Origin: a virus | DNA: 62,296 nt | Virus genome (UHGV): UHGV-1379142 | Strand: one strand, 5' to 3' | In this document: one piece after another, positions 1 to 45,743 of the stretch | Position numbering within the stretch: position 1 is the stretch's first letter | Layout of the letters: every line of letters begins with the position of its first letter | Program-made: the position numbers and the translations under genes | Notes under the pieces: generated by a model | Seen by the model: only the letters and a program-made list of their open reading frames with translations | Database searches by the model: none | Told to the model about the DNA's origin: nothing

Positions 1-120
1 GTATAAACCCTATAAGTAACCTACTTCGTAAGAACTATATACTAGTATATGTACTTAAATAGAACCTACTTCGTAAGTACTTTACTAAGGTATATACCCT
101 ATAAGTTAACCTAAGGTACC
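1..120. repeat. Left copy of ~120-bp inverted repeat (partner 45625..45743, ~97% identity). Contains internal direct sub-repeats AACCTACTTCGTAAG x2 and CCCTATAAGT(T)AACCT x2 and a 14-bp palindrome ATATACTAGTATAT.
   Basis: Reverse complement of 1..120 matches 45625..45743 with 2-3 mismatches; sub-repeats read directly. Confidence 0.9.
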
Positions 121-164
121 AGACTTCAGAAGTAATTTAATCTGAATATTTTTAACTTGTCCTC

Positions 165-194
165 TTGACAAAGTTAAATTCAAGATTATATTAT
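165..194 (+). promoter_or_regulatory. Sigma70-like promoter P1 (TTGACA-17-ATATTA) upstream of helicase gene
   Basis: cctcTTGACAaag + 17-bp spacer + ATATTA; member of the repeated cCTCTTGACAAa promoter family. Confidence 0.55.
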
Positions 195-237
195 AGCTAA
201 GTCTGCTTCAACCTTAACTTTGAACAAGCAAGGTAAC

Positions 238-1626
238 ATGAACATAGAGGAAATTTCCCTTGTTTTGTTCTTGTTAAGTAAAGAAAACTTTGATAAGTAT
301 TTTAAATTCATATTTGAATTGAATCTTGAACTTGAAACAAAGAACTTTCTTAAAACAATTAGAGAATATTTTCAAGAATATCCTGAAAAAGATTCTCTTT
401 CTGTTGAAGAATTGCTTGTCTTTTTCTCAGTAAAACATCCTATTCTGAAAAAGAAGACATCATATTCTGCATATCTTGAGAGGTTAGGTTCAACTCAAAT
501 AGATAATAAAGTCTTAGAAGAAAACTTAAATCATTTTCTTGAAAAATATTTTGCAAGTGAAATGGTATTTAAGTTAACTGAAGTCTTAGATGGAGAAGCG
601 TACTCTGTTTTAGATGAAGTTCAAGACTTATTATCTGAATTTAATGAACGCAAAGTTAAGCTTAACAAAGATGAAGACCAACTTTTTGTTAAGTCTAACT
701 TAGATGAACTCTTACAAGAAGAAGTTCATGAAGCTGGTTTACGCTGGAGATTATCCTGTCTTAATGAAAGCATCGGAGAGCTGAGAGGTGGTAGCCTTGG
801 CCACGTATTTGCTAGAGTTGATACAGGTAAAACATCTTTCATCGTATCTGAAGTTTCAAACTTTGCATCGCAGCTAAAGGATGATGAGGTTATACTTTGG
901 TGTAACAATGAAGAAAAGGGTAAGCGCGTACTCTTTCGTATCTATCAGTCTATACTTAAATGTAGTAAGACTGATCTCATAAACTATTCTGAAGATGCAG
1001 AAGCAGAGTTCGATAGGTTAGGCGGCAACAAAATAAAGATCTACGATCAAGCTATCATCTCAGTTGAAGACATAGATCAATTGATGAAGACATACAACGT
1101 ACGTGTCTTGGTAATAGACCAAGGTGATAAGATCAGATTCTCTGGTGATCGTGATATGTCTACAGTTGATAGGTTGAAAGCTGTTTACGGTAAGTTCAGA
1201 GAACTTGCTAAAACATACAACTGTGATGTAATTGCTGTTGGTCAGGCGTCTGTTTCCGGTGAAGGATCCAAGTGGTTAAAGATGTCTGACATGGATAACA
1301 GTAAGACTGGTAAACCCGGTGAGCTTGATTATGCAATCGGTATTGGAAAAACATTTGACGATGTTGACAATCCTGTTTGCAGTATTAGATATATATCTCT
1401 GTGTAAGAACAAGATGAATGAAGGTAAACATGGCAGGTATGAAGTAGTGTTTAACGCTTCATGTGCTTTGTATACTGATAAAGCATCAGGTAGTTTCTCT
1501 GAAATGTCGAAGTCCGACGACCAGTCTCTTACGAGTAGTGGAAGCACAAGCTCTGGTTCTGGCTCACCTGTGCTGAACTCTTCATTCAGATCTCTGTTGT
1601 CAGAGGTATATGGAAACCATAACTAA
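238..1626 (+). CDS. DnaB/T7 gp4-like replicative helicase (RecA-fold C-terminal domain)
   Basis: Walker A-like ARVDTGKTSF, Walker B VLVIDQGD, and surrounding pattern typical of hexameric DnaB-family helicases. ATG at 238 preferred over the TTG at 220 given in the ORF track. Confidence 0.6.
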   Translation: MNIEEISLVLFLLSKENFDKYFKFIFELNLELETKNFLKTIREYFQEYPEKDSLSVEELLVFFSVKHPILKKKTSYSAYLERLGSTQIDNKVLEENLNHFLEKYFASEMVFKLTEVLDGEAYSVLDEVQDLLSEFNERKVKLNKDEDQLFVKSNLDELLQEEVHEAGLRWRLSCLNESIGELRGGSLGHVFARVDTGKTSFIVSEVSNFASQLKDDEVILWCNNEEKGKRVLFRIYQSILKCSKTDLINYSEDAEAEFDRLGGNKIKIYDQAIISVEDIDQLMKTYNVRVLVIDQGDKIRFSGDRDMSTVDRLKAVYGKFRELAKTYNCDVIAVGQASVSGEGSKWLKMSDMDNSKTGKPGELDYAIGIGKTFDDVDNPVCSIRYISLCKNKMNEGKHGRYEVVFNASCALYTDKASGSFSEMSKSDDQSLTSSGSTSSGSGSPVLNSSFRSLLSEVYGNHN

Positions 1627-1640
1627 AATGGAATATACTT

Positions 1641-1871
1641 ATGTCTCAGTTTACTAACAAGGTTATCGCTCAGGCTGACATTGCTTTTGAAGAACACGTT
1701 GCTAAGCTTGAACAGGAAACTGGTCTTGCTCTTCGTGACCTGTCTCTGATTGATATGCTTAACGCGCTGAAAGCATATGAGAAAACTCCGTCTGAACCTG
1801 AGGAAGATACCCGTTCGCTTTCTCTGGAAGAACCCGTTACTGCGAAGACCGTAGCTAAGTCGAGCAAGTAA
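1641..1871 (+). CDS. hypothetical small acidic protein
   Basis: ORF immediately upstream of, and coupled to, the polymerase start (TAAATG overlap); weak RBS. Confidence 0.35.
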   Translation: MSQFTNKVIAQADIAFEEHVAKLEQETGLALRDLSLIDMLNALKAYEKTPSEPEEDTRSLSLEEPVTAKTVAKSSK

Positions 1872-2978
1872 ATGTCTTGGGTTGCCATTGACATCGAATG
1901 TTCTCGTGCTCCGAAGCACATGCCTTGGACTGTTGGTTCATACTTGTGCTCTGTTGGAATAGAACGACAAGATGGCACCTCAACCGTGTGGTTCTTTAAT
2001 CCAAACGATAGACCACATGAAGAACTTCTTTCTGAGATTCAACAAGAGATTGACAAAGTTGATTTCTTAGTTGGTCACAACATCAAGTTTGACTTGAACT
2101 GGCTTAAGTGGATTGGTTTGAATGTCAAGGACAAACCAATTTGGTGTACAATGTTAGCAGACTATCTCATAAATGGTCAGCGTAAACTTGAATACAGTTT
2201 GAATGCTGTTGCATCACGTTATAACTTAGGTCATAAGTTAGATGCTATGGCAATGTACTGGCAAGCAGGTTACGAGACTGATGAGATTCCACTAGATATT
2301 CATGAAGAGTATCTTAAGATGGATGTACACTTAACACATGAAGTCTTTAAGAGGCAGCTTCCTCTTATTGAACGAGCAAACCTTGGCAAGATAACAGAAC
2401 TTTCTTTTCGTATTACTCAGATTCTTTCTGACATGGAAGTATCTGGTGCTGCATTTGACAAAGATGGAGCCATAACGTACTGCAACGAAGTGCGCAGTCA
2501 AGTACGTAATATGGATAATCAACTTGTCAAACTTGCAGGTATTGACTTTACTCCCTCCTCTTCTTCACAACTCAGTGCTGTTTTGTTTGGTGGTTCTTTA
2601 AAGAAAGAACTTCGTGAGCTTGTTGCTCGTCAGCTTAAGAGTGGTAAGTATAAGATCACCACACGAAAAGCAAAGGTTGATATTCCTGTTAAGGGACTTG
2701 GCTTTAAAGTTCCAGAAGGATGTCTGTCTAAGAAGACAGGTTTACCTTCAGTTGACAAGAATACAATTGACTTGCTTAAAGCTAAAGACAAACGGTCTGA
2801 GTCCTTCCTAAATGTACTACGAGAACAGCGTAAGCTGCAGAAAGTAGTATCCACTATTGCTGGTTCAAGTGATGAGAATGAAAAAGGTTTGGTAGCAGCC
2901 GTTGGTAAAGACGGTAGACTTCATCCTTCTTTCAACCAGTGTGTCACACGTACTGGTAGACTCTCTTCATCAGACCCT
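1872..2978 (+). CDS. DNA polymerase I (family A) exon 1: 3'-5' exonuclease domain and N-terminal polymerase region, ending ...TGRLSSSDP
   Basis: Exo I motif DIE, then TGRLSSSDP, which lies immediately before the conserved PNLQNIP motif. The ORF breaks exactly inside that motif. Confidence 0.65.
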
Positions 2979-3681
2979 GAATCCCATTGGGGTCTCTAAA
3001 CTGGGTGAACTCATGGGAACCCTAACAGATATTGCTGAGGGCAATCATGAGCCAAGCTTCAGTACATGAACAAGCATACCATCTCTTACTCACAACTTCC
3101 CTTACGTATCAACAGATTGCAACACAATTGTCTACAACTTTCAAAGTTGTTTGGCGCGTAGCTAACACAAAACTTTCAGATGAAGAAAGAAAAGCACGCA
3201 AAGCTAAGAACTATAGACGTGCTCAACTTGGTAAGCTTAACACTATGTATAATAGAAAGAAGACTAACAGTCCTTTCTACAAAGCTGGCCTTTCATTTGA
3301 CGATGATGGTTACGCCTTAGTGTATAAACCTAAATGGTTTACAGGCACGCGAGGGAACTCAAGCAAAGTCTACGCACATCATGTGGTACTATGCAAAAGA
3401 GAAGGTATGACAAAGATTCCAACAGGTTATCATGTTCATCACATAGATGGTCGTCATGCAAATAATAAAGTTTGGAATCTTATATTGTTAACGTCTACAC
3501 AACATAGACGTCTTCATGATATACTGAAGAAGGTGCAGAGACTAGGAGCCTATGAAGATATAGGACAGCGCCCAGCTTGGATAGACATACTGTTTAGGTA
3601 CTGTCTATGCTTGATGATATAGTCCAATTACCATAGTAATATGGGAAACATGCTTATGTTGTTCGGCATGTAAAATTAAAG
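2979..3681 (+). mobile_element. Group I self-splicing intron (~703 nt) inserted in the PNLQNIP codons of the DNA polymerase gene; carries an HNH homing endonuclease ORF
   Basis: P1: exon-1 3' end AGACCCU pairs with intron internal guide GGGGUCU (2988-2994), with a terminal U.G wobble. P10: exon-2 5' AAUGGG pairs with CCCAUU (2982-2987). Intron ends in G (3681). Spliced product reads DP-NGQNMP, close to consensus DPNLQNIP, in frame. Confidence 0.6.
3032..3622 (+). CDS. HNH homing endonuclease (intron-encoded)
   Basis: HVHHIDGRHANNKVWNLILLTSTQHRRLHD HNH motif; located inside the intron. Confidence 0.7.
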   Translation: MLRAIMSQASVHEQAYHLLLTTSLTYQQIATQLSTTFKVVWRVANTKLSDEERKARKAKNYRRAQLGKLNTMYNRKKTNSPFYKAGLSFDDDGYALVYKPKWFTGTRGNSSKVYAHHVVLCKREGMTKIPTGYHVHHIDGRHANNKVWNLILLTSTQHRRLHDILKKVQRLGAYEDIGQRPAWIDILFRYCLCLMI

Positions 3682-4536
3682 AATGGGCAAAACATGCCCC
3701 GTAAAGGTACCAGCCCCATCAAAACATTCTTCAAATCCCAGAAAGGTGTTATCGTTAATCTTGACTTAGCTCAGATTGAGTGGCGTATTGCTGCTGAACT
3801 AAGTAAAGATCCTGTCATGATTCATGAATTAAACGAAGGCTTGGACATTCACACTGACAATGCTATTCGATTCCTTGATGCTGGAAAATATGAGCGTGGT
3901 TCAGAAGAGTTTAAACAAGTTCGTACAATTGCTAAGACAATATCATTCCGTCTTCTCTATGGTGGTTCAGCGGAAGGTTTCTTTAGAGATCAACGTATGC
4001 CTGACTATAGCTTAAAAAGATGGAGAGAGATTGTTAATGCTTTCTATCAAAAGTATCAAGGTCTGAAACGATGGCAGGATGCTAATATCCAAACAGCTTC
4101 TGCACGTGGGTATATACGTAATCCTTCTGGGCGTGTGCTTACCTTTGACGAAGAGGTAAAGTACGGTATTGAATCTGTAGATGTTAAACAGGTTAAGAAC
4201 TATCCAGTTCAATCTGGTTCTACAGATGTTATGTATTTGTGTATGGTTAAGATCTTAGAGAAGATCCAAGCTAGTGGCATCAACCCTTTGCTTATCCTTC
4301 AAGTACATGACTCTCTTGTGTTTGACTGTACGATAGAAGAAGCAGAAACTTTGTGTCGTATAGGTATAGAAACATTCAAGAGTTTACCAGCACTAGCAAA
4401 AGAATACTTTGGTTGGGATATAGTAGTACCACTTTTAGGTGACTGTGAAGTAGGGTATGACTATGGTAACACTAAGGGATTTAAAGAAGAAGAGATGGAC
4501 AAGATCTTCAAAGATCTTCCAGCTTTTCTCTCTTGA
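3682..4536 (+). CDS. DNA polymerase I (family A) exon 2: palm/fingers with motifs A, B, C
   Basis: Motif A DLAQIEWRIAAE, motif B RTIAKTISFRLLYGG, motif C QVHDSLVFD; in frame with exon 1 after intron removal. Confidence 0.7.
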   Translation, partial: NGQNMPRKGTSPIKTFFKSQKGVIVNLDLAQIEWRIAAELSKDPVMIHELNEGLDIHTDNAIRFLDAGKYERGSEEFKQVRTIAKTISFRLLYGGSAEGFFRDQRMPDYSLKRWREIVNAFYQKYQGLKRWQDANIQTASARGYIRNPSGRVLTFDEEVKYGIESVDVKQVKNYPVQSGSTDVMYLCMVKILEKIQASGINPLLILQVHDSLVFDCTIEEAETLCRIGIETFKSLPALAKEYFGWDIVVPLLGDCEVGYDYGNTKGFKEEEMDKIFKDLPAFLS

Positions 4537-4550
4537 CAAATCCTTTAGAA
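4523..4550 (+). promoter_or_regulatory. Sigma70-like promoter P2 (TTGACA-16-TATCTT)
   Basis: ctctcTTGACAaatcc ... TATCTT; same family as P1, P3 and P4. Confidence 0.5.
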
Positions 4551-4590
4551 TGTTTATCTTCTTTTTATACGCGCATGATAGGAAAAACAC

Positions 4591-5022
4591 ATGTGGTTTG
4601 TTTTTAACAACATTGAGTTGAAGCATGATCTCGTATCTAGAGCCGGTAAAACTTTCACTGGTTATGTTCTGAACGGTGAAAAGAAAGGCTATAATGGTGA
4701 ACCCAACACTCCGTACCAAAAGATTCTGTTTGAGAATACTGCTGCTACGGTGATTGAACAAGGTATTGAAAGACCTAACTGTTCTGTTGTACAGTTCTTC
4801 CAGAAAGCTTGTAGGCCAGGAGATATTGTCATCATGAAATTCTCTCGTAGAGGTGGAAATATGTGGGACATAGCTTCGGTTGAAAAACTGAGCAACAGTT
4901 CAGAACTTCCCACGTATGAACCTTTGACAGCAGAGCAAGCGCAAGCTCTCAAGTCACATGGCGTTGTAGGTAGCGAAGCATCGTATGCTGCTACTGGAGC
5001 AACTCCCGCTTGGGTAAGATAA
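4591..5022 (+). CDS. hypothetical protein (possible ssDNA-binding protein by position only)
   Basis: ORF with RBS aggaaaaacac-ATG downstream of P2; no recognisable motif. Confidence 0.45.
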   Translation: MWFVFNNIELKHDLVSRAGKTFTGYVLNGEKKGYNGEPNTPYQKILFENTAATVIEQGIERPNCSVVQFFQKACRPGDIVIMKFSRRGGNMWDIASVEKLSNSSELPTYEPLTAEQAQALKSHGVVGSEASYAATGATPAWVR

Positions 5023-5119
5023 GTTAGCTTAACTCAACAAAAGAAGGCCAGTCTATAGATGTACATATGTAAGCTTGAGACATACATACACTATAGCTGG
5101 CCTTTTGTTTTGGAGAATT

Positions 5120-6028
5120 ATGTACACAAACAAGTTCAATTTGCCCAAGGCTTTTGAGGATGCTCTTCAACCACAACCTTACGATCCTGTTGGTGCATCA
5201 GACTATAGTGCTACATCTTTGATTGACAGTCCGAGATATGTTCAGCTCTATAAACGACATCGTAATGAGATTGTCGAAGACTGCATGGACCAGTGGTATG
5301 TATGGAGAGGTAACGCAGTACATCATGAGATGGAATCAGTTCTTTCAAAGAATCCAAAGTATTTGGTTGAACGTAAGATCACTCGTTTTGACAAGCCTGA
5401 GAATGGCGACGAGTCAACGTACAGACGGGTCGTCGCAAAGTTTGACCTCTATGATAAAGAGACACAGACTTTATCAGACTGGAAGACGTGTTCCGCGTAT
5501 ATGCATGGCAGTACGGGGAAACAAGAATGGATTAACCAGCTCAACCTTAATGCGTACTTCCTTGAGAAAGAAGGGTATCCGGTAAAAGATGTTGCTATCA
5601 ACGCCATCTATATGGATTGGAGACCTCAATCTGGACGGTACAAAGATGACAAGTATCCCGAATTACCTTTCAACGAATTCCGCTACCGCGTGCTGCCTCT
5701 TGAAGAGCGCGAGTCCTACTACAAGGAACGCCTTCGTCTACACGTGGAGGCCGAATCCTGTAGCGATGACATGCTGCCAGTATGCACTGCGGACGAATGC
5801 TGGGAGAAGCCTGCTAAGTATGCCGTTTACAAGGTAGGAGCAGCGAAGGCCACAAAACTTTGTGACACTCGTGAAGAAGCAGATGAGTACATTCGCCACA
5901 AGAGACTTGGACCTGACTACAAGGTTGAGTATCGACCTGGGGAGAGAACAAGATGTGAGAGGTACTGTCCCGTAAAAGCTTGGTGTAATCAGTATGCAGA
6001 GTACAAGAAAAACCAACTGGGGAGCTAG
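5120..6028 (+). CDS. PD-(D/E)xK nuclease with C-terminal 4-Cys cluster (Cas4/RecB-family-like exonuclease)
   Basis: D..D...E.K-like core (FDLYDKETQTLSDWK) plus C-x3-C ... C-x3-C-x5-C near the C-terminus (CTADEC ... CERYCPVKAWC). GGAG RBS before ATG at 5120. Confidence 0.5.
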   Translation: MYTNKFNLPKAFEDALQPQPYDPVGASDYSATSLIDSPRYVQLYKRHRNEIVEDCMDQWYVWRGNAVHHEMESVLSKNPKYLVERKITRFDKPENGDESTYRRVVAKFDLYDKETQTLSDWKTCSAYMHGSTGKQEWINQLNLNAYFLEKEGYPVKDVAINAIYMDWRPQSGRYKDDKYPELPFNEFRYRVLPLEERESYYKERLRLHVEAESCSDDMLPVCTADECWEKPAKYAVYKVGAAKATKLCDTREEADEYIRHKRLGPDYKVEYRPGERTRCERYCPVKAWCNQYAEYKKNQLGS

Positions 6029-6512
6029 GTACAAAGGTCTTGTTTATATTTACTTGTGCTTGTCTCTAAGCTTCTTCCCGTTGTCGTTCAGTTTTATTTC
6101 ACGCACAGTAGGTATGCACCGCAATGTGTTGTATGATATCATGCGTCAAGTACCTTTGCTGTCTACACAGCAAGATATGCATAAGCAAGCTGCTATCAAA
6201 AATACTACATTTTGTGGTCTACAAAATCCTAGATACAAACTTGATGGTGTATCTTCCATAAAAGGTTATAAGGCAATTCGTCCACCTTCATGGTATACAG
6301 GGTATGTATCAAGAGGTTTTGTTAGAGAGCATATCCTACTGGTGTGTGAGAAGTTTGGTTGGACACAGCTACCAAAAGGATATGAAGTTCATCACATTGA
6401 TATGAACAAGCTAAATAATGACATAAACAATCTAGCTGTTCTTACAAAAAGTGAACATGCTAAAGTGCATAACCAATACAAGGAGTGGAAAGATGCTCAA
6501 GGTACAAGATAG
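5994..6512 (+). CDS. HNH homing endonuclease (free-standing)
   Basis: GWTQLPKGYEVHHIDMNKLNNDINNLAVLTKSEHAKVH; overlaps the end of the nuclease gene. Confidence 0.65.
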   Translation: MQSTRKTNWGARYKGLVYIYLCLSLSFFPLSFSFISRTVGMHRNVLYDIMRQVPLLSTQQDMHKQAAIKNTTFCGLQNPRYKLDGVSSIKGYKAIRPPSWYTGYVSRGFVREHILLVCEKFGWTQLPKGYEVHHIDMNKLNNDINNLAVLTKSEHAKVHNQYKEWKDAQGTR

Positions 6513-6801
6513 TCCTGTATGGGCAGATGACCCTGTGATCAAGTATGCTATACAATACTCTGATGAGCAGTTCTCTGAACTGTCCAAGGTCTGGGCTGAT
6601 CTAGGACTTGAACTTCTTGTGCATAAGCAGGAAGTAGACCCCTTGATTGATATCATTCAGAGAGGTGAGGATGGCTACATTATAGACGCCATGACAATTG
6701 GCGTTGGCGAATGGTTCATCTTCGATCCTATGGTCAAGGACGACTGGTACATTGCTACGAACAAAGAGTTCGAAGGAACATACATTGTAGTGGAGGATTA
6801 A
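6493..6801 (+). CDS. hypothetical protein
   Basis: AAGGAG RBS before ATG at 6493; overlaps HNH stop. Confidence 0.45.
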   Translation: MLKVQDSPVWADDPVIKYAIQYSDEQFSELSKVWADLGLELLVHKQEVDPLIDIIQRGEDGYIIDAMTIGVGEWFIFDPMVKDDWYIATNKEFEGTYIVVED

Positions 6802-6857
6802 ACATCTCATGCACAACTTGACTCAACTCGGGAGATTTTTAAGGAGGTGATTGTGTA

Positions 6858-7022
6858 GTGATTAGATATGAGTTGAAGATACCTGCTATTGTTACATATA
6901 GAGACAAGGGTATTGTCGATGTGCAACTTCGGTCTGGTATCAAGGTTACTTTGAAGGAAGACGACTTCGTTCGTTGCTTCAAGGTTATGAAGGATGTCTC
7001 TACTGTAGGAGATAGTTAGTAA
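6858..7022 (+). CDS. hypothetical small protein (GTG start)
   Basis: AAGGAGG at 6841-6847 followed by GTG; 54 codons; not in ORF track (<60 aa). Confidence 0.25.
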
Positions 7023-7294
7023 TGACAACGCCACAGTGGCTTCTAGCCATAAACCAATTTGTTAATGCAGTCTTTGGTGGTAATGCTTACACTACATTGT
7101 CAACACGTGCGTACATGGCACGAAGAGACAAGGGTTATGCATGGCCAGCCAACCTCCTTGACAAGTTGTTCTTTTGGCATAAGAAGTACGGAGGACATTG
7201 TAAGTATGCATACTGGACAGATATGTGTAGGTGGCAGAACTTGCATGAGTCCGAAGGTAAAGACCTTGGCAAAGTTAACGTGCCTCAAAACTAA
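7022..7294 (+). CDS. hypothetical protein
   Basis: GGAG RBS; ORF track. Confidence 0.45.
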   Translation: MTTPQWLLAINQFVNAVFGGNAYTTLSTRAYMARRDKGYAWPANLLDKLFFWHKKYGGHCKYAYWTDMCRWQNLHESEGKDLGKVNVPQN

Positions 7295-7308
7295 TAAGTG
7301 GGTGTAGT

Positions 7309-7572
7309 GTGAATAAGCTTGAACCGATGACTGTTGTGAAACATTTCAAAGGTAATCAGTATATTGTTCTTGGTGTTGCTAAACATACAGAACTGAATAC
7401 TGATCTTGTGATCTACCGTAGTTTGGATGGAGAACGTAAGCTGTATGCTCGCCCTCTTGATATGTTCATGTCTGATGTAGACAAGGATAAATATCCTGAT
7501 GTACAACAGAAAGAAAGGTTTGAGTACGTTGGTTCTGTTAAAGATGTCTTAACAGCGAAGGCTAAAAACTAG
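7309..7572 (+). CDS. DUF1653-like small protein
   Basis: KHFKGNQYIVLGVAKHTE ... VIYRSLDGE ... YARPLDMF pattern recalls the DUF1653 family (from memory). Confidence 0.4.
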   Translation: MNKLEPMTVVKHFKGNQYIVLGVAKHTELNTDLVIYRSLDGERKLYARPLDMFMSDVDKDKYPDVQQKERFEYVGSVKDVLTAKAKN

Positions 7573-7624
7573 TGAACATTTAACGTGGGGTAGCTTAGGT
7601 TGCCCCACTTACACAGGAGTAGTA

Positions 7625-7819
7625 ATGGTTGTTTATGTAGTTACGTATTCGCAACCAACCTACTGTGGTAATGGATGTTCCACAGACAATGTGATTGGAG
7701 TGTGTGCTTCAAAAGAACGTGCCGAACAACTTATGGAAGAACACCATAAAGAGTTCAACGAATCCAATGAGTATTGGAGACTTGAGTACACGCAAGAAGC
7801 TTTTGAGATAAAGGAATAG
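7625..7819 (+). CDS. hypothetical protein
   Basis: ORF with GGAG RBS. Confidence 0.4.
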   Translation: MVVYVVTYSQPTYCGNGCSTDNVIGVCASKERAEQLMEEHHKEFNESNEYWRLEYTQEAFEIKE

Positions 7820-7821
7820 TT

Positions 7822-7953
7822 ATGTATATCGTTAAGAAACTTGCCAGCACTGTGTGGAGCTGTGTTGCTAACGTGTACTGGACTACTTTGATTCTTGTTA
7901 ACTTACCAGTTCTTTTTCTTGACGTTCTTATCAGGGCATTTACGGAGGTATAG
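7822..7953 (+). CDS. small hydrophobic (single-TM) protein, 43 aa
   Basis: AAAGGAA RBS, ATG 7822; WTTLILVNLPVLFLDVLI hydrophobic stretch; below ORF-track cutoff. Confidence 0.3.
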   Translation: MYIVKKLASTVWSCVANVYWTTLILVNLPVLFLDVLIRAFTEV

Positions 7954-7956
7954 ATT

Positions 7957-8443: not shown

Positions 8444-8461
8444 CAGAGGAAGTACATATAT

Positions 8462-9173: not shown

Positions 9174-9185
9174 GCTGAGGTACAC

Positions 9186-11159: not shown

Positions 11160-11163
11160 TATT

Positions 11164-35648: not shown

Positions 35649-35658
35649 GTTATTTCCT

Positions 35659-37051: not shown

Positions 37052-37080
37052 TATTACCCTCAAGTAAGCAGAATGTTAGA

Positions 37081-37656: not shown

Positions 37657-37759
37657 AAAAATTATACCTTATGTTAAAGTGTAGAGCTAGATGAAGCAGA
37701 GCTAGATACGAAAAAGGGGAGAACCCTTTGATAGTTGTTCTCCCCGTATGGGTCATGGC

Positions 37760-38800
37760 TTAGTACGCAGTCACCGCGACTTCGGCACGAACCATCCAAG
37801 CCTGATTGAGAATCACGCAGGTCTGCATGGTCTTCCAAGCAACGTGAGCACGCTGAGCCAGCGGGTCAGATTCAGTGTGAGAAGGATTGATGATCACAGG
37901 AGTCAGAGACTCAGCACCCTTCAGGGGCACCAGACCATAGGCATCCTTCGCGAGGAAGAGGATGGGATACACGTCAGCCTTGGTGCCAGTGGTCGAAACC
38001 ATCGTGTCACCAGCAGCATTCGTCTTGTTACCACCCGCATCCGGCCAGCTCTTCATCAGAGTCGTGAAGAGGTAACGCACGCCTTCAACAGCACCGATTT
38101 CGTTTTCCCACGGACCAGCATTGCCATAGTCCTTCACGTCAATGAAGTGAGGCATCGAACGGATGTCAGCTTCACAGTCGGGATGGCACACAGCAACGAA
38201 GCAGGGAGCAACGGATTCAGTGTAGAAACGAGGCGTAGACTTGATCGAATCAGTGATCATACGCGCCTTCTGGTTCTTCAGCTTGCGCGTAATGCGACGC
38301 TGCAGAGGCAGAGAGATCGGCGTATTCACTTCAGCACGAGACGCACCGTTAGCGTATTCCACGTTGGTACCACCAAGCAGAACACCGATACGCATGTTTT
38401 CAACAGTTTCAGCGGCCTGTTCACCCACAATCTGAGTCACCTGTTCCATAACAGGGGAGTCGTTAGTGTCGAGCAGAACGTCGGTCATGGTCACGAGGTT
38501 GCCATACTGATGCACAGTAGCTTCAATGTCGGTAACAGTGAAGGTCTGAGCAGTAGGCGTAACACCTTCGGTCAGTTCCGTAGGCGTAGCATCGAGGGAC
38601 TCGAAGCGACGGAACTTAGCAGTCTTCGTGCTCTTCGTCGGCAGGGGATAAGCCTGACCAAACTTTTCAAACACGAGGTAAGGCAGAGCGCGAATGAGCA
38701 TCTTAGCGACGACATAAACATTCGCCATCGTGGAAAGGGTACCCTGAGAAGCATCAGAGGTCGTACCCGTATGCATGATAGTATTCGGAGTAGAAGCCAT
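37760..38800 (-). CDS. Major capsid protein (HK97-fold candidate)
   Basis: 346-aa ORF immediately after the scaffold-like gene in TerL-portal-scaffold-MCP order; sequence pattern typical of MCPs (no motif certainty). Confidence 0.55.
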   Translation of the reverse strand: MASTPNTIMHTGTTSDASQGTLSTMANVYVVAKMLIRALPYLVFEKFGQAYPLPTKSTKTAKFRRFESLDATPTELTEGVTPTAQTFTVTDIEATVHQYGNLVTMTDVLLDTNDSPVMEQVTQIVGEQAAETVENMRIGVLLGGTNVEYANGASRAEVNTPISLPLQRRITRKLKNQKARMITDSIKSTPRFYTESVAPCFVAVCHPDCEADIRSMPHFIDVKDYGNAGPWENEIGAVEGVRYLFTTLMKSWPDAGGNKTNAAGDTMVSTTGTKADVYPILFLAKDAYGLVPLKGAESLTPVIINPSHTESDPLAQRAHVAWKTMQTCVILNQAWMVRAEVAVTAY

Positions 38801-38828
38801 TAGATTAAATTCCTAATTCAAAACGAGT

Positions 38829-39764
38829 TTAGCGCACACGTCTGCTGCGTTCATACTCACGAGCTAGGTCATCAAAAGTCTTTTCTTTTGGCTTAGCTTT
38901 CGGCTTAGAGCTAATATCAATAGGTTCCTTGCCAGTACGAACTGCCATAGCAGCGAGCACTTGTTTAACAATATCCTCAGTTTCAGACACAGTGTTATGC
39001 TGTGGAGCTGACTTAGGTGCCATAGTCGTACGAGGCTTAACACCACGAGCAGACTTGTAATCGTTCAGAAGAGATATGACTTCCTGTGCAGTTCCGTACT
39101 GATACACGTACTTGGCTCCATTCTGCATCACAGGAGGCAGACTGTCAATCCAAGTAAAGAGATCACCACTATCCAATATAGCATTAATATCAGGGTGGGC
39201 AGCACGAATAGCACTGAAATGCCTATCAGCTTCTGTTTGAAAAAGTTGCTGCTGAATAGGTTCAACGCGAGTCTTAAGTTCAGTCTCTACGTTTTTCTTT
39301 ACAGCAGAAACCTTAGCATCAACAAGCGTCTTCACTGCGTTAGCAATCTCAGGATGAATCTCAAAGAGTTCCTTTACGTTTTCAGGAAGTTCATCTGGAT
39401 CTTCCTTCTGCGTTACGGTCTGTTTCTTTTCCTCTTTGAGTTCTGAGTACTTACGAGACAGATCTGTGAGTCTGCTAGCCCACAGGTTATTCTGTGCTTC
39501 AGCATCACGCTTGGCCTTTTCATAAAGCTCTTTGTAATTCAGAGGAAGTTCAGTAGTCTCAGAAGACTGGGAGCTTTCTTCCGTAAGATCTTCTGAGGGC
39601 TGATCTTCTTCATCATCAGGCTGGCTTTCGACGTTTTCTTCTTCGGAAGAATCTTCAGGCTCACTCGTAATATCTTCAAATGAAGGCTCTGGCCTAGAGG
39701 GATCTTCATAAGACTTAGCAAGTTCGTCAAAGGCTTCCATAAAATCTTGGTTCTGTTCGGTCAT
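38829..39764 (-). CDS. Scaffolding protein (acidic N-terminus, helical)
   Basis: Highly acidic E/D/S-rich N-terminal third; position between portal and MCP. Confidence 0.5.
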   Translation of the reverse strand: MTEQNQDFMEAFDELAKSYEDPSRPEPSFEDITSEPEDSSEEENVESQPDDEEDQPSEDLTEESSQSSETTELPLNYKELYEKAKRDAEAQNNLWASRLTDLSRKYSELKEEKKQTVTQKEDPDELPENVKELFEIHPEIANAVKTLVDAKVSAVKKNVETELKTRVEPIQQQLFQTEADRHFSAIRAAHPDINAILDSGDLFTWIDSLPPVMQNGAKYVYQYGTAQEVISLLNDYKSARGVKPRTTMAPKSAPQHNTVSETEDIVKQVLAAMAVRTGKEPIDISSKPKAKPKEKTFDDLAREYERSRRVR

Positions 39765-39802
39765 AGTTTTATTCTTAGTTAGGGAGGGGTTAACCCTAAG
39801 TC

Positions 39803-40066
39803 CTAACTGGATTGGCTCATGAGCAAGCTATCCGAAAGGGGCTCACTCCCAAGTTCCAGTACATCCAAGAGCTTTTGTATTACACGTAGTTCACCGATGA
39901 GTCGGTCTACGTTATCTGTATTGTCAGGACTTAGCAACTTACTATACCTTTGGCTTCTCAGCACTTTAAGGTAAGTAACTATATTCCTTTGTAAATCGGC
40001 GTTGGCCGTGAGCCTGAAGGATTTCTCCAAGCTCACACGCCTACCGTTAAGTGGAGTATCAGTCAT
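39803..40066 (-). CDS. hypothetical small protein
   Basis: ORF track. Confidence 0.35.
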   Translation of the reverse strand: MTDTPLNGRRVSLEKSFRLTANADLQRNIVTYLKVLRSQRYSKLLSPDNTDNVDRLIGELRVIQKLLDVLELGSEPLSDSLLMSQSS

Positions 40067-40070
40067 AGGC

Positions 40071-42152
40071 TTACGCCTGTACCTGTCCCTGATTCTGATT
40101 CGTTTCCATATCTTCCCTTAGTTGGCGAAGACTCGTAATAAGAGCAGACGGACTAACACCTTCAGCACGAGCGGTCTCAACCATATCGGTCATCCACTCA
40201 CGTTCTTCCTGAGCAGCCTTTTCTTGCTGCTGCTTCTGTACTTCAATTTCCTTATCCGTATAAACAAGATTATCGTCGGACAGATCAAGAGAATCTGCAA
40301 TCGAACGGATAATATTCGGACGCTTGACTGTACCCAGATCAGTAGGATTATTCGTAATCTGAGCAAAGTTAATCAAAGACTGCGCTCTGATTTCCTTAGC
40401 AATCAAAGAAGAAGTACCACGAGCAACTACAGCATAGTCACCCTTGATGTCTGCATCACTGTTAAACTTCATGTTCCAGTGATACATAGCAGAAATGAAA
40501 GGCTTTGTGATACCGTCGTCAAAGTTCTTAACTTGATCCTTGATGGTGATATTAGCAGAACCCATCAACATAGACAAGCCAGAAGCAGTACGACCAGCAG
40601 CACCAGAAGGTTCTCCCCACATCTGACGAGGAATGGAAGTAACTTCATCCCCGTAGCTGCGGAAGAGTTCAATCATACGTTCAAACTCAGTTGTGTAACT
40701 AGGAAGCTGAAACACACGAATCGCAGGATTCGCAGCGTCTGCACCTTCACCAGTACGCATCCAAACCTTAAAGGGATATACGTCACGAGGATCTTCATCT
40801 TCGGACATAAGATCAAGGTTTACTTCAATCTGAGGTCCAGCAGAGATAGCTGCGTTATCAAGCATAGCTCTGAACGCACTATTAATAAGCTCCTGAACAT
40901 CAGACATAATGGACGGAATACCTTCACCAAAGATAGAGGTTTCGTCCTTGTCATAGTAATAGAAGAAGTAAGGCCACTTAACGCCCTCCATAGGCATGAG
41001 AGACGCTTTAATAACGTGGTCGCCAAGTACCCAAATGTTTGCAGCAAGTTCAACTTGACCCTGCATACGTTCAGGAATATCTACACCTACTTCATTCAAA
41101 TCGTCAGCATCAACAAAACCCCAGAACTCCAACACCTCGTACTTCTTTGAGTGAGCAGCATCAGCGATACCACTGTCAATTACATCACCCATAGAAGTGA
41201 GTTGGTTCTCAAAGTCTTGTTTCTGGTAGTCACCATCAGGATTCTCAGTAAGATACGTAGCGATAATGTCTCCGTTAAAGTCAGACCTTTTCGCTAAGCC
41301 TATTACGTCATGCTTGTCCATCTTTCTACGCTGAATGATAAATCTACATTCAGACGGACAAGTCGATTCCATGTCCGGGTAAATATCCCAGATACGTACG
41401 TTTTCAATGAACGGAGTAATCGAGTCATAGTCCTGAAGAATCCACTTCTCTTTGTCTCCATTCTTTTCCTTTTTGTAGTACTGACGGTTTTCAGAAATAG
41501 AAACAAGCGGGCCTTTGAGAATACCAGTACCGTACAGATTACCAGAATGCAGAACATCTCTCATAATCTCACGATACTTAAGCTCAGCAAGCTGATCTTC
41601 GATAACCTTAGACATCTTGTTGGCTTGACTCTTGGCTTCGTCTTGCATCAAGACATAAAGCTGTTCAGAAGAAATCTGTTGTCCTTGTTCTTGAGAAACA
41701 AGTTCAAGGATTGCTTTTTCTTTCTGAGTACTAAATTGTGGAATAGGTGTAGGTTCAATTCCCCAGTTCTTATCACCATTCGCAGGGAACAGCAAGTCAG
41801 AAAGCCTACTGTCTACAGTCTTTACTTTCGTACGAGTCATGCGTACAAAAGCCTTACTGCGAAGAGGATCCATACGTTCTAGAACTTCTGGAGAGTAGAT
41901 ACCTTTGTATTGGCGAAGAGCATTCAACCACTTTTCTTCAATAGTCTTACGCGCACTGTCCGATCTTTCATAAGCATCTCGGACAAACGCAGCCAAACCT
42001 TGTGGCGTTTCAGGTGCTCCTTCGGTATCTTCTGTTCCATTGTCTTCGTCTACTATCATCTTAGAAGAAACTTCTTCAAGAAAGTCTTCTACATCTTTAT
42101 CAGTAGCTGCATCAACAACAGTTCCAGAACCGAAAAAATCTTTTTCAGTCAT
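40071..42152 (-). CDS. Portal protein
   Basis: 693-aa ORF directly downstream of TerL; GGAGG RBS. Confidence 0.55.
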   Translation of the reverse strand: MTEKDFFGSGTVVDAATDKDVEDFLEEVSSKMIVDEDNGTEDTEGAPETPQGLAAFVRDAYERSDSARKTIEEKWLNALRQYKGIYSPEVLERMDPLRSKAFVRMTRTKVKTVDSRLSDLLFPANGDKNWGIEPTPIPQFSTQKEKAILELVSQEQGQQISSEQLYVLMQDEAKSQANKMSKVIEDQLAELKYREIMRDVLHSGNLYGTGILKGPLVSISENRQYYKKEKNGDKEKWILQDYDSITPFIENVRIWDIYPDMESTCPSECRFIIQRRKMDKHDVIGLAKRSDFNGDIIATYLTENPDGDYQKQDFENQLTSMGDVIDSGIADAAHSKKYEVLEFWGFVDADDLNEVGVDIPERMQGQVELAANIWVLGDHVIKASLMPMEGVKWPYFFYYYDKDETSIFGEGIPSIMSDVQELINSAFRAMLDNAAISAGPQIEVNLDLMSEDEDPRDVYPFKVWMRTGEGADAANPAIRVFQLPSYTTEFERMIELFRSYGDEVTSIPRQMWGEPSGAAGRTASGLSMLMGSANITIKDQVKNFDDGITKPFISAMYHWNMKFNSDADIKGDYAVVARGTSSLIAKEIRAQSLINFAQITNNPTDLGTVKRPNIIRSIADSLDLSDDNLVYTDKEIEVQKQQQEKAAQEEREWMTDMVETARAEGVSPSALITSLRQLREDMETNQNQGQVQA

Positions 42153-42157
42153 GATTC

Positions 42158-43573
42158 TTAGTAGCCTCCAATCTGGCTAGCAGCGCGATATTTACGTTGT
42201 GTGTTAAACAAGAACTTCTTTTCACGCTTGTGGACATACTCCATCATAGCGTACTGTAAAGCATCATGAATATGCGAGTACTCATTCTTAACAGGAGATG
42301 CCTTATAAAGAATACCGTTTACAGTCTTAGACTCAGCATACTTGTATTCTGAGACAAAACCTTTTCTTAGAGCCACACACTTAGGCCCAAGTTTAAAGCG
42401 TCCCTTTAAGCGAAGGAACTGAGCAACGGATTCAAAACGTGGAGTCCAATTGTTTGTCTTACCAAGCTTAGCAGGCAAGTTACATTCTTTAAGAATCTCC
42501 ATGCCAGACTTAGCATCATTCATAGATCTCTGCGATGTTGCAGGGTCACACACAACTTTAAAGTTATTCACAATCCAAGGGTATTCTGCTGTAATCTTAG
42601 GCCAAAGATGTTCTTCACAAAATTCTTTCAAAGAACAGTTGTCTGTGCAGATCTCATCAAAGACAAGCACAGTACCGTCAGGAGCTTGTTGTGTAAAAGC
42701 AGCTGAAGGTGTGAGACCTTGGTCCATACCAATTACAACAGGAACACCACGAAGAGGAAGCATTTCATCATCTACATGATGTTCAAGATCACTATAGTCT
42801 TTGTAGACAGGTTTACCTTTCTTAACTTCACCATAGTTGTTCATGACGTTGACGTTGATGAAATCTTCGTCAGCACCCATACACATGGTTTCATAGTAAC
42901 CTTTGTCTAGATTCTTTAAGTTCTCTGCTTCAGGGTTAAGTACAAGTTTACCGTCAACTTTAATCATAGCAGGAGGTTGACGATAAAAGCTATGACCTTC
43001 TGGCTTATCTTCTTCTGCAAGTCTGTAAAGCCAGTGGTCAGTACTTACTGCGTTGTAGTCAAGAATAATAAACGGATTAACAGGCCCGCCATCTTTCATA
43101 GCAGGGTATCGTTTAAAACGTGTCTTGACTAGTTGGAAAGTTCCTTCTGATAGTTCAGAAGCTTCGTTAAGGTGAGCAGAGGTAACTTCAAGAGAACGAA
43201 GCTTTTCAGCAGAACGATCATCGTCAACAGCTATAAACAGAACTTCAAGGTCGACCTTTGTTCCGTCAGCTAAAGGATACTTAATCCTGCCGACGATAGG
43301 GGTAGAATATGTAATAGTGATCTTGTCTTTAAACCATGACAACCATGTTTTGATTGTGGTTGACTTCAGGGCAGGATACGTAGCACGAACAACAAGGTGT
43401 CTACTGTGTCTTACCCCATGCTCATCTGGTTTCTGACGCATAGCATTAAAGAACGCTTGAAAGATACAGCCTGAGGATTTGCCAGAACCTACAGGCCCCA
43501 TCACGAACAAATATGGATTAGGATCACGATGAACCTTTGCAAACGTTGGCAGGACTTGATAATCAATATCCAT
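42158..43573 (-). CDS. Terminase large subunit
   Basis: N-terminal Walker A VMGPVGSGKSSG; C-terminal nuclease-like region; 471 aa. Confidence 0.7.
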   Translation of the reverse strand: MDIDYQVLPTFAKVHRDPNPYLFVMGPVGSGKSSGCIFQAFFNAMRQKPDEHGVRHSRHLVVRATYPALKSTTIKTWLSWFKDKITITYSTPIVGRIKYPLADGTKVDLEVLFIAVDDDRSAEKLRSLEVTSAHLNEASELSEGTFQLVKTRFKRYPAMKDGGPVNPFIILDYNAVSTDHWLYRLAEEDKPEGHSFYRQPPAMIKVDGKLVLNPEAENLKNLDKGYYETMCMGADEDFINVNVMNNYGEVKKGKPVYKDYSDLEHHVDDEMLPLRGVPVVIGMDQGLTPSAAFTQQAPDGTVLVFDEICTDNCSLKEFCEEHLWPKITAEYPWIVNNFKVVCDPATSQRSMNDAKSGMEILKECNLPAKLGKTNNWTPRFESVAQFLRLKGRFKLGPKCVALRKGFVSEYKYAESKTVNGILYKASPVKNEYSHIHDALQYAMMEYVHKREKKFLFNTQRKYRAASQIGGY

Positions 43574-43581
43574 AACAGCCC

Positions 43582-43950
43582 TTACTGATTTTCTTTCACC
43601 AAATCCTTAAGCCCAGCAGGAGCTGTGTCTTCATCCGGGAAAGAAATGTTTACGTTGATAACTTCACCAGCGTTCGGATTAAAGTCCATAGCTTTCATCT
43701 TTGGCTGGTAGTAAGAGAGGAGTTCAGTAGCGATCTTAATCTTTTCAGTACTGTTTGTTTTTGCAGACCTAGCCAGATGCACAAGTTCTTTGATAGGATC
43801 GTACCCAAACTCAAAGCGAAGACGACGAAGAAGTTCGTCTCCCTTGGTACAACCCTTCCCATCAGGAACAACAGCAGAAGGACTAGGCTTCTTCAGAAGA
43901 GGTTTTACAGAGTCTTTCTTCATCAATATCACCTGAGTCAGAGCGTTCAA
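43582..43950 (-). CDS. putative terminase small subunit
   Basis: 122-aa basic protein immediately upstream of TerL. Confidence 0.4.
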   Translation of the reverse strand: MNALTQVILMKKDSVKPLLKKPSPSAVVPDGKGCTKGDELLRRLRFEFGYDPIKELVHLARSAKTNSTEKIKIATELLSYYQPKMKAMDFNPNAGEVINVNISFPDEDTAPAGLKDLVKENQ

Positions 43951-44608
43951 GCAAGGTAGCTATCTTCTCTGCGTATGTTTTTAAAAGGAACTGAAAGTCA
44001 GAAGAAGTAATGTCTTCACGCAGTCTACAGAACTCTACAATGATAAAACCAAACACCATGCCATCATCGGTCATGAGGGGTTCTAAAGCAAAGGACGTTA
44101 CCTTATGTCCTTTCAGTAAAGTATATGTAGACATGTCGAACTTACGTAACCTATCAATGTTTAGAACAACGTTGGAGTCAAACCCAAACGAAGCGTTTGT
44201 TAGATATGAATATGCAGACACAGGCAAGTTCAAGAACTCAGGTTGTGCTGGCTTCAACCCTGGACGAACTGCTTCATGTGTACACGACATCTTAGCAAAA
44301 TCAATTCTAGAAAGATTCTGGCAACCATTGTGGAATTGAATAACAGCTGCTCTGTCTGCATTTAGTTCTGTTTTAAGATGTCTAAGCTTCGTAAGTACGC
44401 GCTCATTCATATCTACTAACGAAGGGAAGTCCTTGGCAAACTTTGAAACTTTATCTTTAGCTACACGTTTAAGATAAGATGATAAAGCTGCACACTCATA
44501 TAAAATAAGTGCAGTTCCTCCAAGCATTGCTAGGGATATGTAGTCGGCGTCTTTTACTAGGCTTGACAGGCTGTTTAAAACCTCTAGTAAAAATTGACCA
44601 TCTACCAT
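43883..44608 (-). CDS. hypothetical protein, first gene of late operon
   Basis: ORF track; downstream of P5. Confidence 0.4.
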   Translation of the reverse strand: MVDGQFLLEVLNSLSSLVKDADYISLAMLGGTALILYECAALSSYLKRVAKDKVSKFAKDFPSLVDMNERVLTKLRHLKTELNADRAAVIQFHNGCQNLSRIDFAKMSCTHEAVRPGLKPAQPEFLNLPVSAYSYLTNASFGFDSNVVLNIDRLRKFDMSTYTLLKGHKVTSFALEPLMTDDGMVFGFIIVEFCRLREDITSSDFQFLLKTYAEKIATLLERSDSGDIDEERLCKTSSEEA

Positions 44609-44662
44609 CTTGACATTCCTTGAAATAATGGTTATAATTAAATAGGAACTATAACCTTTATA

Positions 44663-44691
44663 ATATATAATACATATTGTAATTTTGTCAA
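44663..44691 (-). promoter_or_regulatory. Sigma70-like promoter P5 driving the late (- strand) operon (TTGACA-17-ATATAT)
   Basis: Reverse complement reads cctcTTGACAaaattacaatatgtatt-ATATAT. Confidence 0.5.
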
Positions 44692-44735
44692 GAGGTTATA
44701 GTAAAAAAAAAAATAAAAAAGAAGAGAAGAATATC

Positions 44736-45608
44736 ATGAGTGAGATTGTAAGAGAAAGACAACTTTGGAAGCGTACAGTTTATCTTAACGAAGATAGCCC
44801 TGAACCTTATAAGATACCTAATTGTAGATGTCAGATAAGGTTGTCTGATTATGTTCCTGAGAATTCTTCAGACAAAGGTATGTACACAAAAGGAGATCTT
44901 GCTAATGATATGAACATCTTCTTTAACTACTTACCTGAGTCAGAAGTAAACAGAATGGTCAACTGCTTCTTCTGGTGTATAGCTACTGCTTTAAAGAACA
45001 GAGGTAAGGTAGACATTAAAGACTTTGCTTTGTTCATGGTTGAAGAGAGAAAGATAAAAGATACTATTACACAAAGTGTACGTGGGCCTCTTGGTATTCC
45101 ACGTAGAGTGCGTAGAGCTCCTATTATGAGATTTATAACACTAAGAGAGTACCCACAACTTAAGTCAGTTATACTTCCAAGAACTAAGGACTACTTTGCA
45201 GGAACAGAACGTACATGGTATACATGGAAGTTAAGTGCAACTAATCAACCGTACTACTATGCTAGACACTGGAGAAGAGGTGCTTTGTTCTTACAACAAG
45301 TCTTTGACAAGACATTCGAGTATACAGGTTATACAGATGAATATCTAGAAATGGCTGAGAAAGGAGTAATAGAACCTTTTGGTACAGAACGAAAGCATAT
45401 GAATAAGATGTACTTAAGTCTTAACACACCACCTTATGTTAAGGCAGCTTTCACAGATGAACTTATCAAAGTACCAGCTAATCATGTAGCAACAGAGTAC
45501 TTTACTGATCCTTCTGTGAAGAGAAAGATATGCAGTTTGACTATCACTCCAGAAGAGGCAGAGAAGTATTTAAAACAAGGTCAACAACCAAGTGTTCAGA
45601 CTTCTTAG
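44736..45608 (+). CDS. hypothetical AT-rich ORFan (290 aa) between the late promoter and the right inverted repeat
   Basis: ATG 44736 chosen over track start 44685, which lies inside P5. Confidence 0.4.
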   Translation: MSEIVRERQLWKRTVYLNEDSPEPYKIPNCRCQIRLSDYVPENSSDKGMYTKGDLANDMNIFFNYLPESEVNRMVNCFFWCIATALKNRGKVDIKDFALFMVEERKIKDTITQSVRGPLGIPRRVRRAPIMRFITLREYPQLKSVILPRTKDYFAGTERTWYTWKLSATNQPYYYARHWRRGALFLQQVFDKTFEYTGYTDEYLEMAEKGVIEPFGTERKHMNKMYLSLNTPPYVKAAFTDELIKVPANHVATEYFTDPSVKRKICSLTITPEEAEKYLKQGQQPSVQTS

Positions 45609-45624
45609 GCTGTTCTAGGGTATA

Positions 45625-45743
45625 GTACCTTAGGTTAACTTATAGGGTATATACCTTTATAAAGTACTTACGAAGTAGGTTCTATTTAAGTACATATACT
45701 AGTATATAGTTCTTACGAAGTAGGTTACTTATAGGGTTTATAC
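45625..45743. repeat. Right copy of ~120-bp inverted repeat (partner 1..120)
   Basis: See left copy. Confidence 0.9.

Follow-up and report, generated by a model that had tools for sequence, protein, structure and literature searches.

In phage SPP1, oriL and oriR are two similar arrays of gp38-binding sites about 13 kb apart on the circular map. For oriR it has been proposed that it does not fire but stalls replication forks, and that replication then becomes recombination-dependent with the help of an exonuclease and a resolvase (PMC6316719). Here we analyze a related arrangement in UHGV virus genome UHGV-1379142, a stretch of 62,296 nucleotides (the window) in which a 119-bp unit occurs twice in inverted orientation, once at the start of the record (copy A) and once 45.6 kb further on (copy B). 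Comparison with related phages identifies copy A as a piece of an ancestral, fast-evolving box array before the helicase gene, and copy B as a derived inverted duplicate confined to one shallow lineage. The reading that we favor, tentatively and at somewhat less than an even chance, is that the pair is a duplicated helicase-upstream array, most likely an origin-like or initiator-binding region, that also acts as a substrate for occasional inversion of the early-gene arc.

Like the SPP1 origins, the two copies are dispersed, similar arrays of short repeats accompanied by AT-rich DNA, one of them beside replication genes, and this phage also encodes an exonuclease and a Holliday-junction resolvase. 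In contrast to SPP1, where gp38 is the established binding protein and its gene contains oriL, no initiator was identified here among the ~60 open reading frames (ORFs) that we scanned with Pfam and PHROGs, many of the small proteins remaining unannotated. The pair is also a near-identical, recent inverted duplicate present in one lineage only, and the replisome is T7-like and self-encoded, not host-derived.

The primary origin of T7 consists of tandem promoters and an AT-rich region, and T4 oriF and oriG combine a promoter with a downstream unwinding element and an R-loop primer. The present locus resembles these origins in having a promoter that points into an AT-rich, easily melted stretch heading the DNA-metabolism genes, together with a T7-type helicase, primase and PolA. 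However, the promoters here are of the host type and not promoters for a phage RNA polymerase or T4 middle promoters, the repeated boxes are without counterpart in the T7 and T4 origins, and copy B has a terminator between promoter and repeat.

Inverted repeats are also known from systems in which a segment changes orientation. As in the isomerization of plastid genomes and herpes simplex virus, there is an inverted pair on a circular or concatemeric replicon, no dedicated invertase, and an inversion-type junction that can be seen. The plastid and herpesvirus repeats are kilobases long and their isomers approximately equimolar, whereas the repeat here measures 119 bp, the orientations stand at ~24:3 contigs and the reciprocal junction is unconfirmed. 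The G segment of Mu (Gin), the C segment of P1 (Cin) and the shufflons likewise have inverted repeats at their borders and occur in either orientation, but their switching of tail-fiber genes depends on crossover sites of 26-34 bp, an enhancer and a serine or tyrosine recombinase encoded nearby; here no recombinase was found in the ORFs scanned, and the segment holds early and replication genes. Finally, the terminal repeats of phi29, PRD1 and Cp-1 are inverted repeats of ~100 bp, and one of our copies stands at the start of the record. Protein-primed terminal repeats can nevertheless be excluded, because both copies are internal and contiguous in many assemblies, the polymerase belongs to family A and not to the protein-primed family B, and there is no terminal protein. 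The pair is a variation on known themes, namely SPP1-like duplicated origin arrays and inverted-repeat isomerization, and not a new kind of system.

Anatomy of the repeat pair

A preliminary description of this genome had reported a near-perfect inverted pair of ~120 bp (~97% identity), with sub-repeats and a 14-bp palindrome in each copy, that splits the genome into two arcs. Base-by-base reading bears this out: positions 1-119 and 45743-45625 are reverse complements with 117/119 bases identical, and the pair divides a single replicon into arcs of 45.5 kb and 16.6 kb. A repeat-finding program gave longer arms at lower identity (1-131 and 45613-45743, 95%); the unit defined base by base is 119 bp. 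The sole difference between the copies is one dinucleotide at positions 84-85, where copy A has TTTACTAAGG and copy B TTTATAAAGG, and uninterrupted identity extends over 83 bp. Chance is excluded as the source of the pair, because no other inverted repeat in the 62-kb window exceeds 32 nt. The copies and the layout of the unit are as follows.

1..119 (+): copy A, the locus judged ancestral; identical in at least 15 independent assemblies
45625..45743 (-): copy B, the inverted, lineage-specific duplicate; begins 16 nt past the stop codon of an HU-like gene
Copy A, first half: box X at 1-17, box Y (AACCTACTTCGTAAG) at 18-32, then an AT-rich spacer with the palindrome ATATACTAGTATAT at 37-50
Copy A, second half: box Y at 63-77, box X at 90-107, then AACCTAAGGTAC at 108-119

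Each copy therefore holds two exact 15-bp Y boxes 45 bp apart, three AACCTA motifs and two X boxes of 17-18 bp. The Y boxes of copy B lie at 45712-45726 and 45667-45681 on the minus strand, and AACCTACTTCGTAAG occurs nowhere else in the window at 0-2 mismatches. The longer element ACCCTATAAGT(T)AACCTA is present twice per copy (7-23 and 96-113 in copy A), and the three AACCTA motifs of copy A are at 18, 63 and 108, an exact 45-bp spacing. None of the box motifs recurs at the other promoters of the genome. The 119-bp unit is most likely a set of sites recognized by a DNA-binding protein of the phage.

Two promoter-like interpretations of the boxes were rejected. Hairpin promoters of the N4 type (TACTT-CGT-AAGTA) do not fit, because neither the two boxes nor the relatives conserve the hairpin; the 2330-amino-acid virion protein, a polyvalent LPD38 protein, also gave no RNA polymerase match. 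Promoters for a phage RNA polymerase, suggested by the resemblance of box X to ...CTATA..., do not fit either, because the ORFs scanned contain no gene for such a polymerase and the motif is confined to the repeats.

The pair in independent assemblies and in the circular genome

In a public assembly collection, the exact helicase was found in 180 index blocks and the exact terminase in 282, mostly from human-gut metagenomes. The loci that we fetched comprise 43 copies of A and 23 of B, each with its own flanks, on ~25 distinct contigs from several assemblers. MEGAHIT contigs built at k119 and k141 cross the 83-bp identical core with single k-mers. A chance or assembly artifact was rejected for the pair, since both flanks are present in many independent assemblies, including those at k119 and k141. 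Short-k contigs stop ~30 nt into the repeat, as expected of a true repeat. The A- and B-specific dinucleotides are fixed in all strains but one, L244, whose copy B has the A-type bases, through either gene conversion or retention of the original state. No other virus or metagenome contig showed the two-box pattern.

The window represents, in circularly permuted form, a podovirus genome of ~61-62 kb with a T7-like replication set. It is circularly closed, because in an independent contig of 62,181 bp (QZLY01000083.1) window positions 53497..62296 continue directly into 1..5434; this contiguity over the end-to-start junction rejects a physical terminus at position 1, and the record was probably linearized at the repeat boundary. 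As a consequence of the circular permutation, copy A lies between the primase and zinc-ribbon genes on one side and the helicase gene on the other. The genes that define the setting are these.

238..1626 (+): DnaB-like replicative helicase, first gene of the T7-like replication module
44736..45608 (+): 290-amino-acid protein with a weak HU/IHF-like domain; converges on copy B and ends 16 nt before it
45744..62296 (+): early arc of ~16.5 kb between both copies, mostly genes without assigned function, with primase and zinc-ribbon genes last
60847-61755 (+): primase, near the end of the early arc and upstream of copy A
61882-62169 (+): small zinc-ribbon protein, last gene of the early arc, directly upstream of copy A

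The plus strand from 220 to ~16.5 kb encodes the helicase, a split family A polymerase, a 5'-3' exonuclease, an ATP ligase, ThyX and an endolysin, as well as the endonuclease I/Holliday-junction resolvase. The minus strand from 44.6 to 16.6 kb is the virion module, with terminase, portal, T7-like capsid, internal virion and tail fiber proteins. The helicase and structural operon promoters are of the host sigma-70 type.

The A and B sites in related phages

A sister lineage, at ~77% nucleotide and 89% helicase identity, keeps synteny to either side of each site. Its A site contains a homologous AT-rich region with several AACCT boxes and one AACCTACTTCGTAAG, and the right half of the repeat can be aligned there. 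The upstream promoter is conserved, with a perfect palindrome, CCTATAGTACTATAGG, over the start (L070 5702-5717), and a second consensus promoter makes two in tandem. More distant relatives have other boxes at the same place. L073 carries five TTGGCCAA(A) boxes at 640-740, between the upstream promoter and the helicase promoter, and L135 carries four palindromic ACTTAAGTAT boxes at 2860-2970, between its only promoter and the helicase start codon. In the relatives the A site has 4-5 boxes, 12-26 bp apart. The A site keeps a box array while the box sequence turns over between relatives. Because relatives carry repeated boxes at the same primase-helicase site, copy A is ancestral.

Copy B has a different history. 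At the B site of the sister lineage we found no trace of the repeat; instead there is a promoter, ~330 nt of noncoding DNA and a strong GC-rich terminator (L086 4180-4540; L079 6600-6930; L090 6520-6920), and the ~330-nt segment is replaced in the window lineage by a terminator hairpin and copy B. Since the sister phages are syntenic on both sides and yet lack the duplicate, and since only one box cluster was found in the L135 contig, copy B is derived. Conservation in related genomes, which the preliminary description had named as a check on the repeat, thus extends to box arrays at the A site, but the pair and copy B are absent from the sister lineage. The proposal that the repeats are vestigial ends of an acquired module is refuted, because the same 16.5-kb arc is present in the same position and orientation in sister phages that lack the pair. 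A resemblance between the repeat and the B-site sequence of L113, a distant relative, was discarded, the 21-nt match being within the shuffle range.

Three observations on these sequences can be added. The ~330-nt segment of the sister B site is itself a candidate phage noncoding RNA, with no Rfam match. The sister-lineage IMG/VR contigs 030075, 028364, 073122 and 037105 are ~43 kb each, and at least two of them (030075 and 028364) break in or next to the A site and at most ~70 nt upstream of the gene for a 241-amino-acid protein at the head of the structural operon; no inverted repeat was detectable between the break points in the sister contigs, and strain mixtures in sample 3300045988 may be responsible. 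Lastly, AACCTACTTCGTAAG lies within a 38-nt unit, AAGGTTTGCGAAGCAAACCTACTTCGTAAGCATGAGCT, of Paenibacillus and related genomes, where it is dispersed and occurs in up to 15 tandem copies (L219 4586-5175 and ~50 other loci). The unit has no similarity to the repeat beyond the 15-mer, and the sharing is probably a coincidence.

Promoters, terminators and duplex stability around the two copies

The following signals surround the copies.

62190-62217 (+): promoter-like module upstream of copy A, TTGACA-16-TATACC, ending 79 nt before the repeat
62216-62232 (+): palindrome CCTATAGTTACTATAGG after TATACC, over the -10/start region of the A-side promoter
62233..62296 (+): AT-rich leader, ~20% G+C, between the A-side promoter module and copy A
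124-150 (+): weak hairpin and T-tract 3' of copy A
165-192 (+): helicase promoter, TTGACA-16-TATATT, after the weak hairpin
45846-45819 (-): promoter-like module facing copy B, GGTACTTGACAAG-...-TATACC, TTGACA-16-TATACC, ending 75 nt before the repeat
45770-45806 (both strands): strong hairpin that separates the B-side promoter from copy B and has T-runs on either strand; -25.1 kcal/mol, z -6.25

Look-alike promoters had been described as approaching both copies at the same distance. Both modules are indeed present and nearly equidistant (79 versus 75 nt), but their -10 element is non-canonical, as TATACC lacks the conserved final T of the -10 hexamer and the A-side site fails a consensus promoter scan, and at copy B a terminator intervenes. 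Among relatives, the A-side promoter module (62190..62232) is the best conserved part of the intergenic region. Its palindrome, CCTATAGTTACTATAGG, looks like an operator for a dimeric regulator, placed over the transcription start. Duplex stability calculations put the least stable 200 bp of the genome at 62210..113 (z 3.7), with the B region third, and the repeat center at 28-67 is also among the least stable 40-mers.

The hairpin at 45770-45806 is a predicted bidirectional terminator, which would end the transcript of the HU-like gene once it has passed copy B. Copy B thus sits in the 3' untranslated region, with the terminator on the promoter side and none following the copy, and it is not upstream of any gene in its own orientation. 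Because it lacks the leader and is shielded by a terminator, copies A and B are in non-equivalent contexts.

These signals also bear on the proposal that the repeats are two copies of a small noncoding RNA gene of ~200 nt transcribed from the look-alike promoters. Promoter-like sites do point into both copies, and the weak hairpin and T-tract follow copy A. However, the claimed termination at 124..150 holds only in part: the hairpin and T-tract are there, but they are weak and fail the terminator scan, and at copy B a strong terminator precedes the repeat while none comes after it. The predicted folding is no better than that of shuffled sequences (the 231-nt A transcript scores z -0.70, the repeat by itself +0.30), no Rfam family matches and the tRNA scan was empty. 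We regard a pair of noncoding RNA genes as very improbable, and the claim is not supported.

A possible origin-like or regulatory array

A duplicated origin or primosome-assembly element, which had been among the first suggestions, is plausible on the features of copy A: the primase and helicase genes flank it, no other DNA in the genome is less stable, and boxes are found at the same place in relatives, although no initiator was identified in the ORFs scanned. The 119-bp unit would then be a place where replication starts or the helicase is loaded, and transcripts from the upstream promoter would run into it, much as they do at the origins of T7 and T4. An origin-like role fits because the array stands in the most meltable DNA, is entered by a promoter and heads a T7-type replication module. 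An AT-rich, potentially unwinding element adjoins the array (62210..113), and a promoter, with its non-canonical -10 element, runs into the AT-rich region with no intervening terminator at copy A, though not at copy B. In one lineage, an inverted copy of the unit came to lie at the opposite end of the early-gene arc, replacing the promoter-driven noncoding segment. If copy B has a function at all, it could offer a further set of binding sites and so work as an additional origin or as a fork barrier of the kind proposed for SPP1 oriR. Both the origin function and the binding of a protein to the boxes are what we infer from this arrangement.

Several points weigh against this origin-like reading. 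No initiator family of the Rep, O, gp38 or DnaA-like type was found in the ~60 ORFs searched with Pfam and PHROGs, in which many small proteins remain unannotated, and the boxes are fewer and more widely spaced than classical iterons. Copy B is without the AT-rich leader of copy A and is shielded from its look-alike promoter by the strong terminator. Strains diverge by only ~1-2%, and perfect conservation over 119 bp is therefore not informative on selection; the A-B divergence of 2/119 itself fits a neutral recent duplicate. Moreover, the A site could just as well be a set of operators bound by a transcription regulator.

Such an array would consist of operators for a phage transcription regulator and would control read-through from the early arc into the helicase operon, with copy B titrating that regulator, or recruiting it, close to where the early region starts. 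The boxes lie between the upstream and helicase promoters, and in L135 between the sole promoter and the helicase start. There is also a likeness between box X and the -10/operator region of the upstream promoter, TATACC(C)TATA(A)GTTA, and a palindromic, operator-like CCTATAGT(T)ACTATAGG that is conserved in relatives overlaps the start of that promoter. Yet no regulator was identified, copy B is upstream of no gene in its orientation, and the box motifs are not reused at other promoters. For the pair as a whole we consider the operator explanation unlikely.

If copy A is an origin, it would be a computationally defined origin candidate for an uncultured and very common group of gut phages, and the pair, if the duplication is as we propose, would be a natural origin-array duplication like SPP1 oriL/oriR, set in a T7-type replication system.

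Possible inversion of the early arc

We examined gene order at 10 terminase-anchored places. In 3/10, the primase and zinc-ribbon genes are found upstream of the HU-like gene, as they would be if the early arc were reversed. These contigs are listed here.

ERZ24910764 NODE_2: flipped contig of 60,812 bp
ERZ24910512 NODE_1: flipped contig of 59,953 bp
ERZ28638353 THOM19-1 scaffold_187: flipped contig of 59,880 bp

At the flipped junction, BLAST aligns window positions 59962..62296 (+) through the repeat to 45743..43474 (-), and the dinucleotide is of the B type. The left flank of A, the repeat and the inner flank of B make up the junction that recombination within the repeat would leave on inverting the early arc. 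MEGAHIT, one of the assemblers behind the contigs of this phage, does not use pairing heuristics to resolve repeats. The two NODE contigs are mutually closest yet represent distinct strains at 99.4% identity, and the third belongs to another sub-lineage. By its name, which matches the SPIRE resource, scaffold_187 probably comes from MEGAHIT, since that resource was assembled with MEGAHIT at default settings (PMC10767986). All other contigs have the standard orientation, as seen at the A junction in 15 or more of them and at the B junction in 17 or more (~24 distinct records).

Inverted homology of 83-119 bp would let homologous recombination invert the early arc, and this would explain the three flipped assemblies. 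After inversion, the helicase operon would still be preceded by a promoter, a leader of ~75 nt and the repeat. If recombination does occur, the T7-like exonuclease and endonuclease I of the phage are as likely to carry it out as RecA.

An important caveat is that the assemblies also speak against inversion in several respects. All k119 and k141 contigs have the standard orientation. The reciprocal junction, in which the left flank of B leads through the repeat to the helicase, was found at 0/43 helicase-side loci, all of which are from non-flipped contigs. The three flipped contigs seem to be linear and to end near the second copy, as judged from contig coordinates and not from end sequence, and a mis-join by the assembler at the repeat stays in contention. 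We rate the chance that the flipped molecules are real as slightly better than even. The suggestion of a flip-flop inversion of the early arc thus stands in part: the expected junction is present in 3 of ~27 assemblies, but one orientation dominates and the reciprocal junction is missing from the loci recovered. The clean, single-orientation assembly of most samples excludes frequent, equimolar flip-flop; rare inversion followed by fixation in some populations, or mis-joining by the assembler, may account for the flipped contigs.

Two stronger versions of inversion can be considered. In one, a common gut podovirus exists as two isomers through recombination at the 119-bp repeat, the matched promoters serve the helicase operon either way, and the flipped early genes become collinear with the structural operon; we hold this to be distinctly unlikely. 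In the other, the pair is a programmed switch that serves to flip the early arc, with the order promoter, 75 nt, repeat and helicase kept in both isomers and with the early arc again collinear with the structural operon in the flipped one. The flipped junction in three assemblies, the match of the promoter modules and their spacing on both left flanks, and the T7-like recombination enzymes of the phage agree with a switch. On the other hand, one orientation is in strong excess (~24:3), the clean full-length contigs of a single orientation in most samples argue against frequent switching, and sister lineages do without the pair. Nor is there an invertase in the ORFs scanned; the earlier statement that no recombinase is present holds for site-specific recombinases, with no match to a resolvase, invertase or integrase family in the ~60 ORFs. 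A programmed switch is in our view quite improbable.

The three flipped contigs also enter into another explanation, which is that the pair is a neutral recent inverted duplication, generated by a template switch during replication or by illegitimate recombination, with no function at the new site, and that the flipped contigs are mis-joined. Copy B is present in only one shallow lineage, its divergence from copy A is in line with that between strains, its context in a 3' untranslated region behind a terminator is unlike that of A, the reciprocal junction was not recovered among the loci fetched, and the flipped contigs, by their coordinates, seem to end near the second copy. Against neutrality, the pair is unchanged in all ~25 contigs of the lineage, from many people and studies, and the look-alike promoters are nearly equidistant from the two copies. 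Furthermore, the samples of the two sister strains that show the flipped junction are separate, and the junction is also present in a third lineage, whose contig was probably assembled with MEGAHIT. We regard a neutral duplication as possible but rather doubtful; should neither the origin nor the inversion hold, the pair would be a harmless recent duplication.

The flipped contigs would mean, if they are real, that a short inverted repeat suffices for heritable isomers of a phage genome without an invertase, which has a bearing on phage genome evolution. There is also a bearing on metagenome assembly and binning, as many assemblies of this phage break exactly at the repeat.

Other features of the genome

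No near DNA match was found among GenBank phages; the helicase is at most 35% identical to the helicases of phiKMV-like phages, and no relatives of it were found in bacterial genomes. In the window, as in a few strains, an HNH endonuclease gene (3032-3622) splits the family A polymerase gene (1872-4536), whereas most strains with an identical helicase have an uninterrupted polymerase of 653 amino acids; other HNH genes vary between strains as well.

In the virion module, the internal-virion-protein gene at 28090-30081 contains a perfect, in-frame tandem duplication of 84 bp (2 x 84, 28335-28502). The 2330-amino-acid protein (17035-24027, minus strand) has an LPD38 'large polyvalent protein' domain and no match to a solved structure, and its C-terminal 840 amino acids match PHROG families of 2800-3900-amino-acid proteins of unknown function.

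At the start of the early arc, 2.1 kb (45744-47830) are free of ORFs longer than ~50 codons and contain several consensus promoters and repeated motifs of the GTAACAT type. Rfam and tRNA scans of this region gave no match, and it is patchily conserved in the sister lineage at 70-80%.

A second inverted repeat, of 32 nt with 31/32 positions complementary, links 46619-46650 and 54384-54415 and is conserved in other strains; assemblies at k=31 also break there. One arm lies in the ORF-poor leader, and the other between a strong terminator (54333-54371) and the ribosome-binding site of an ORF at 54431-54715. Both arms are on the early-transcribed plus strand, so RNAs of the two sites could pair with each other.

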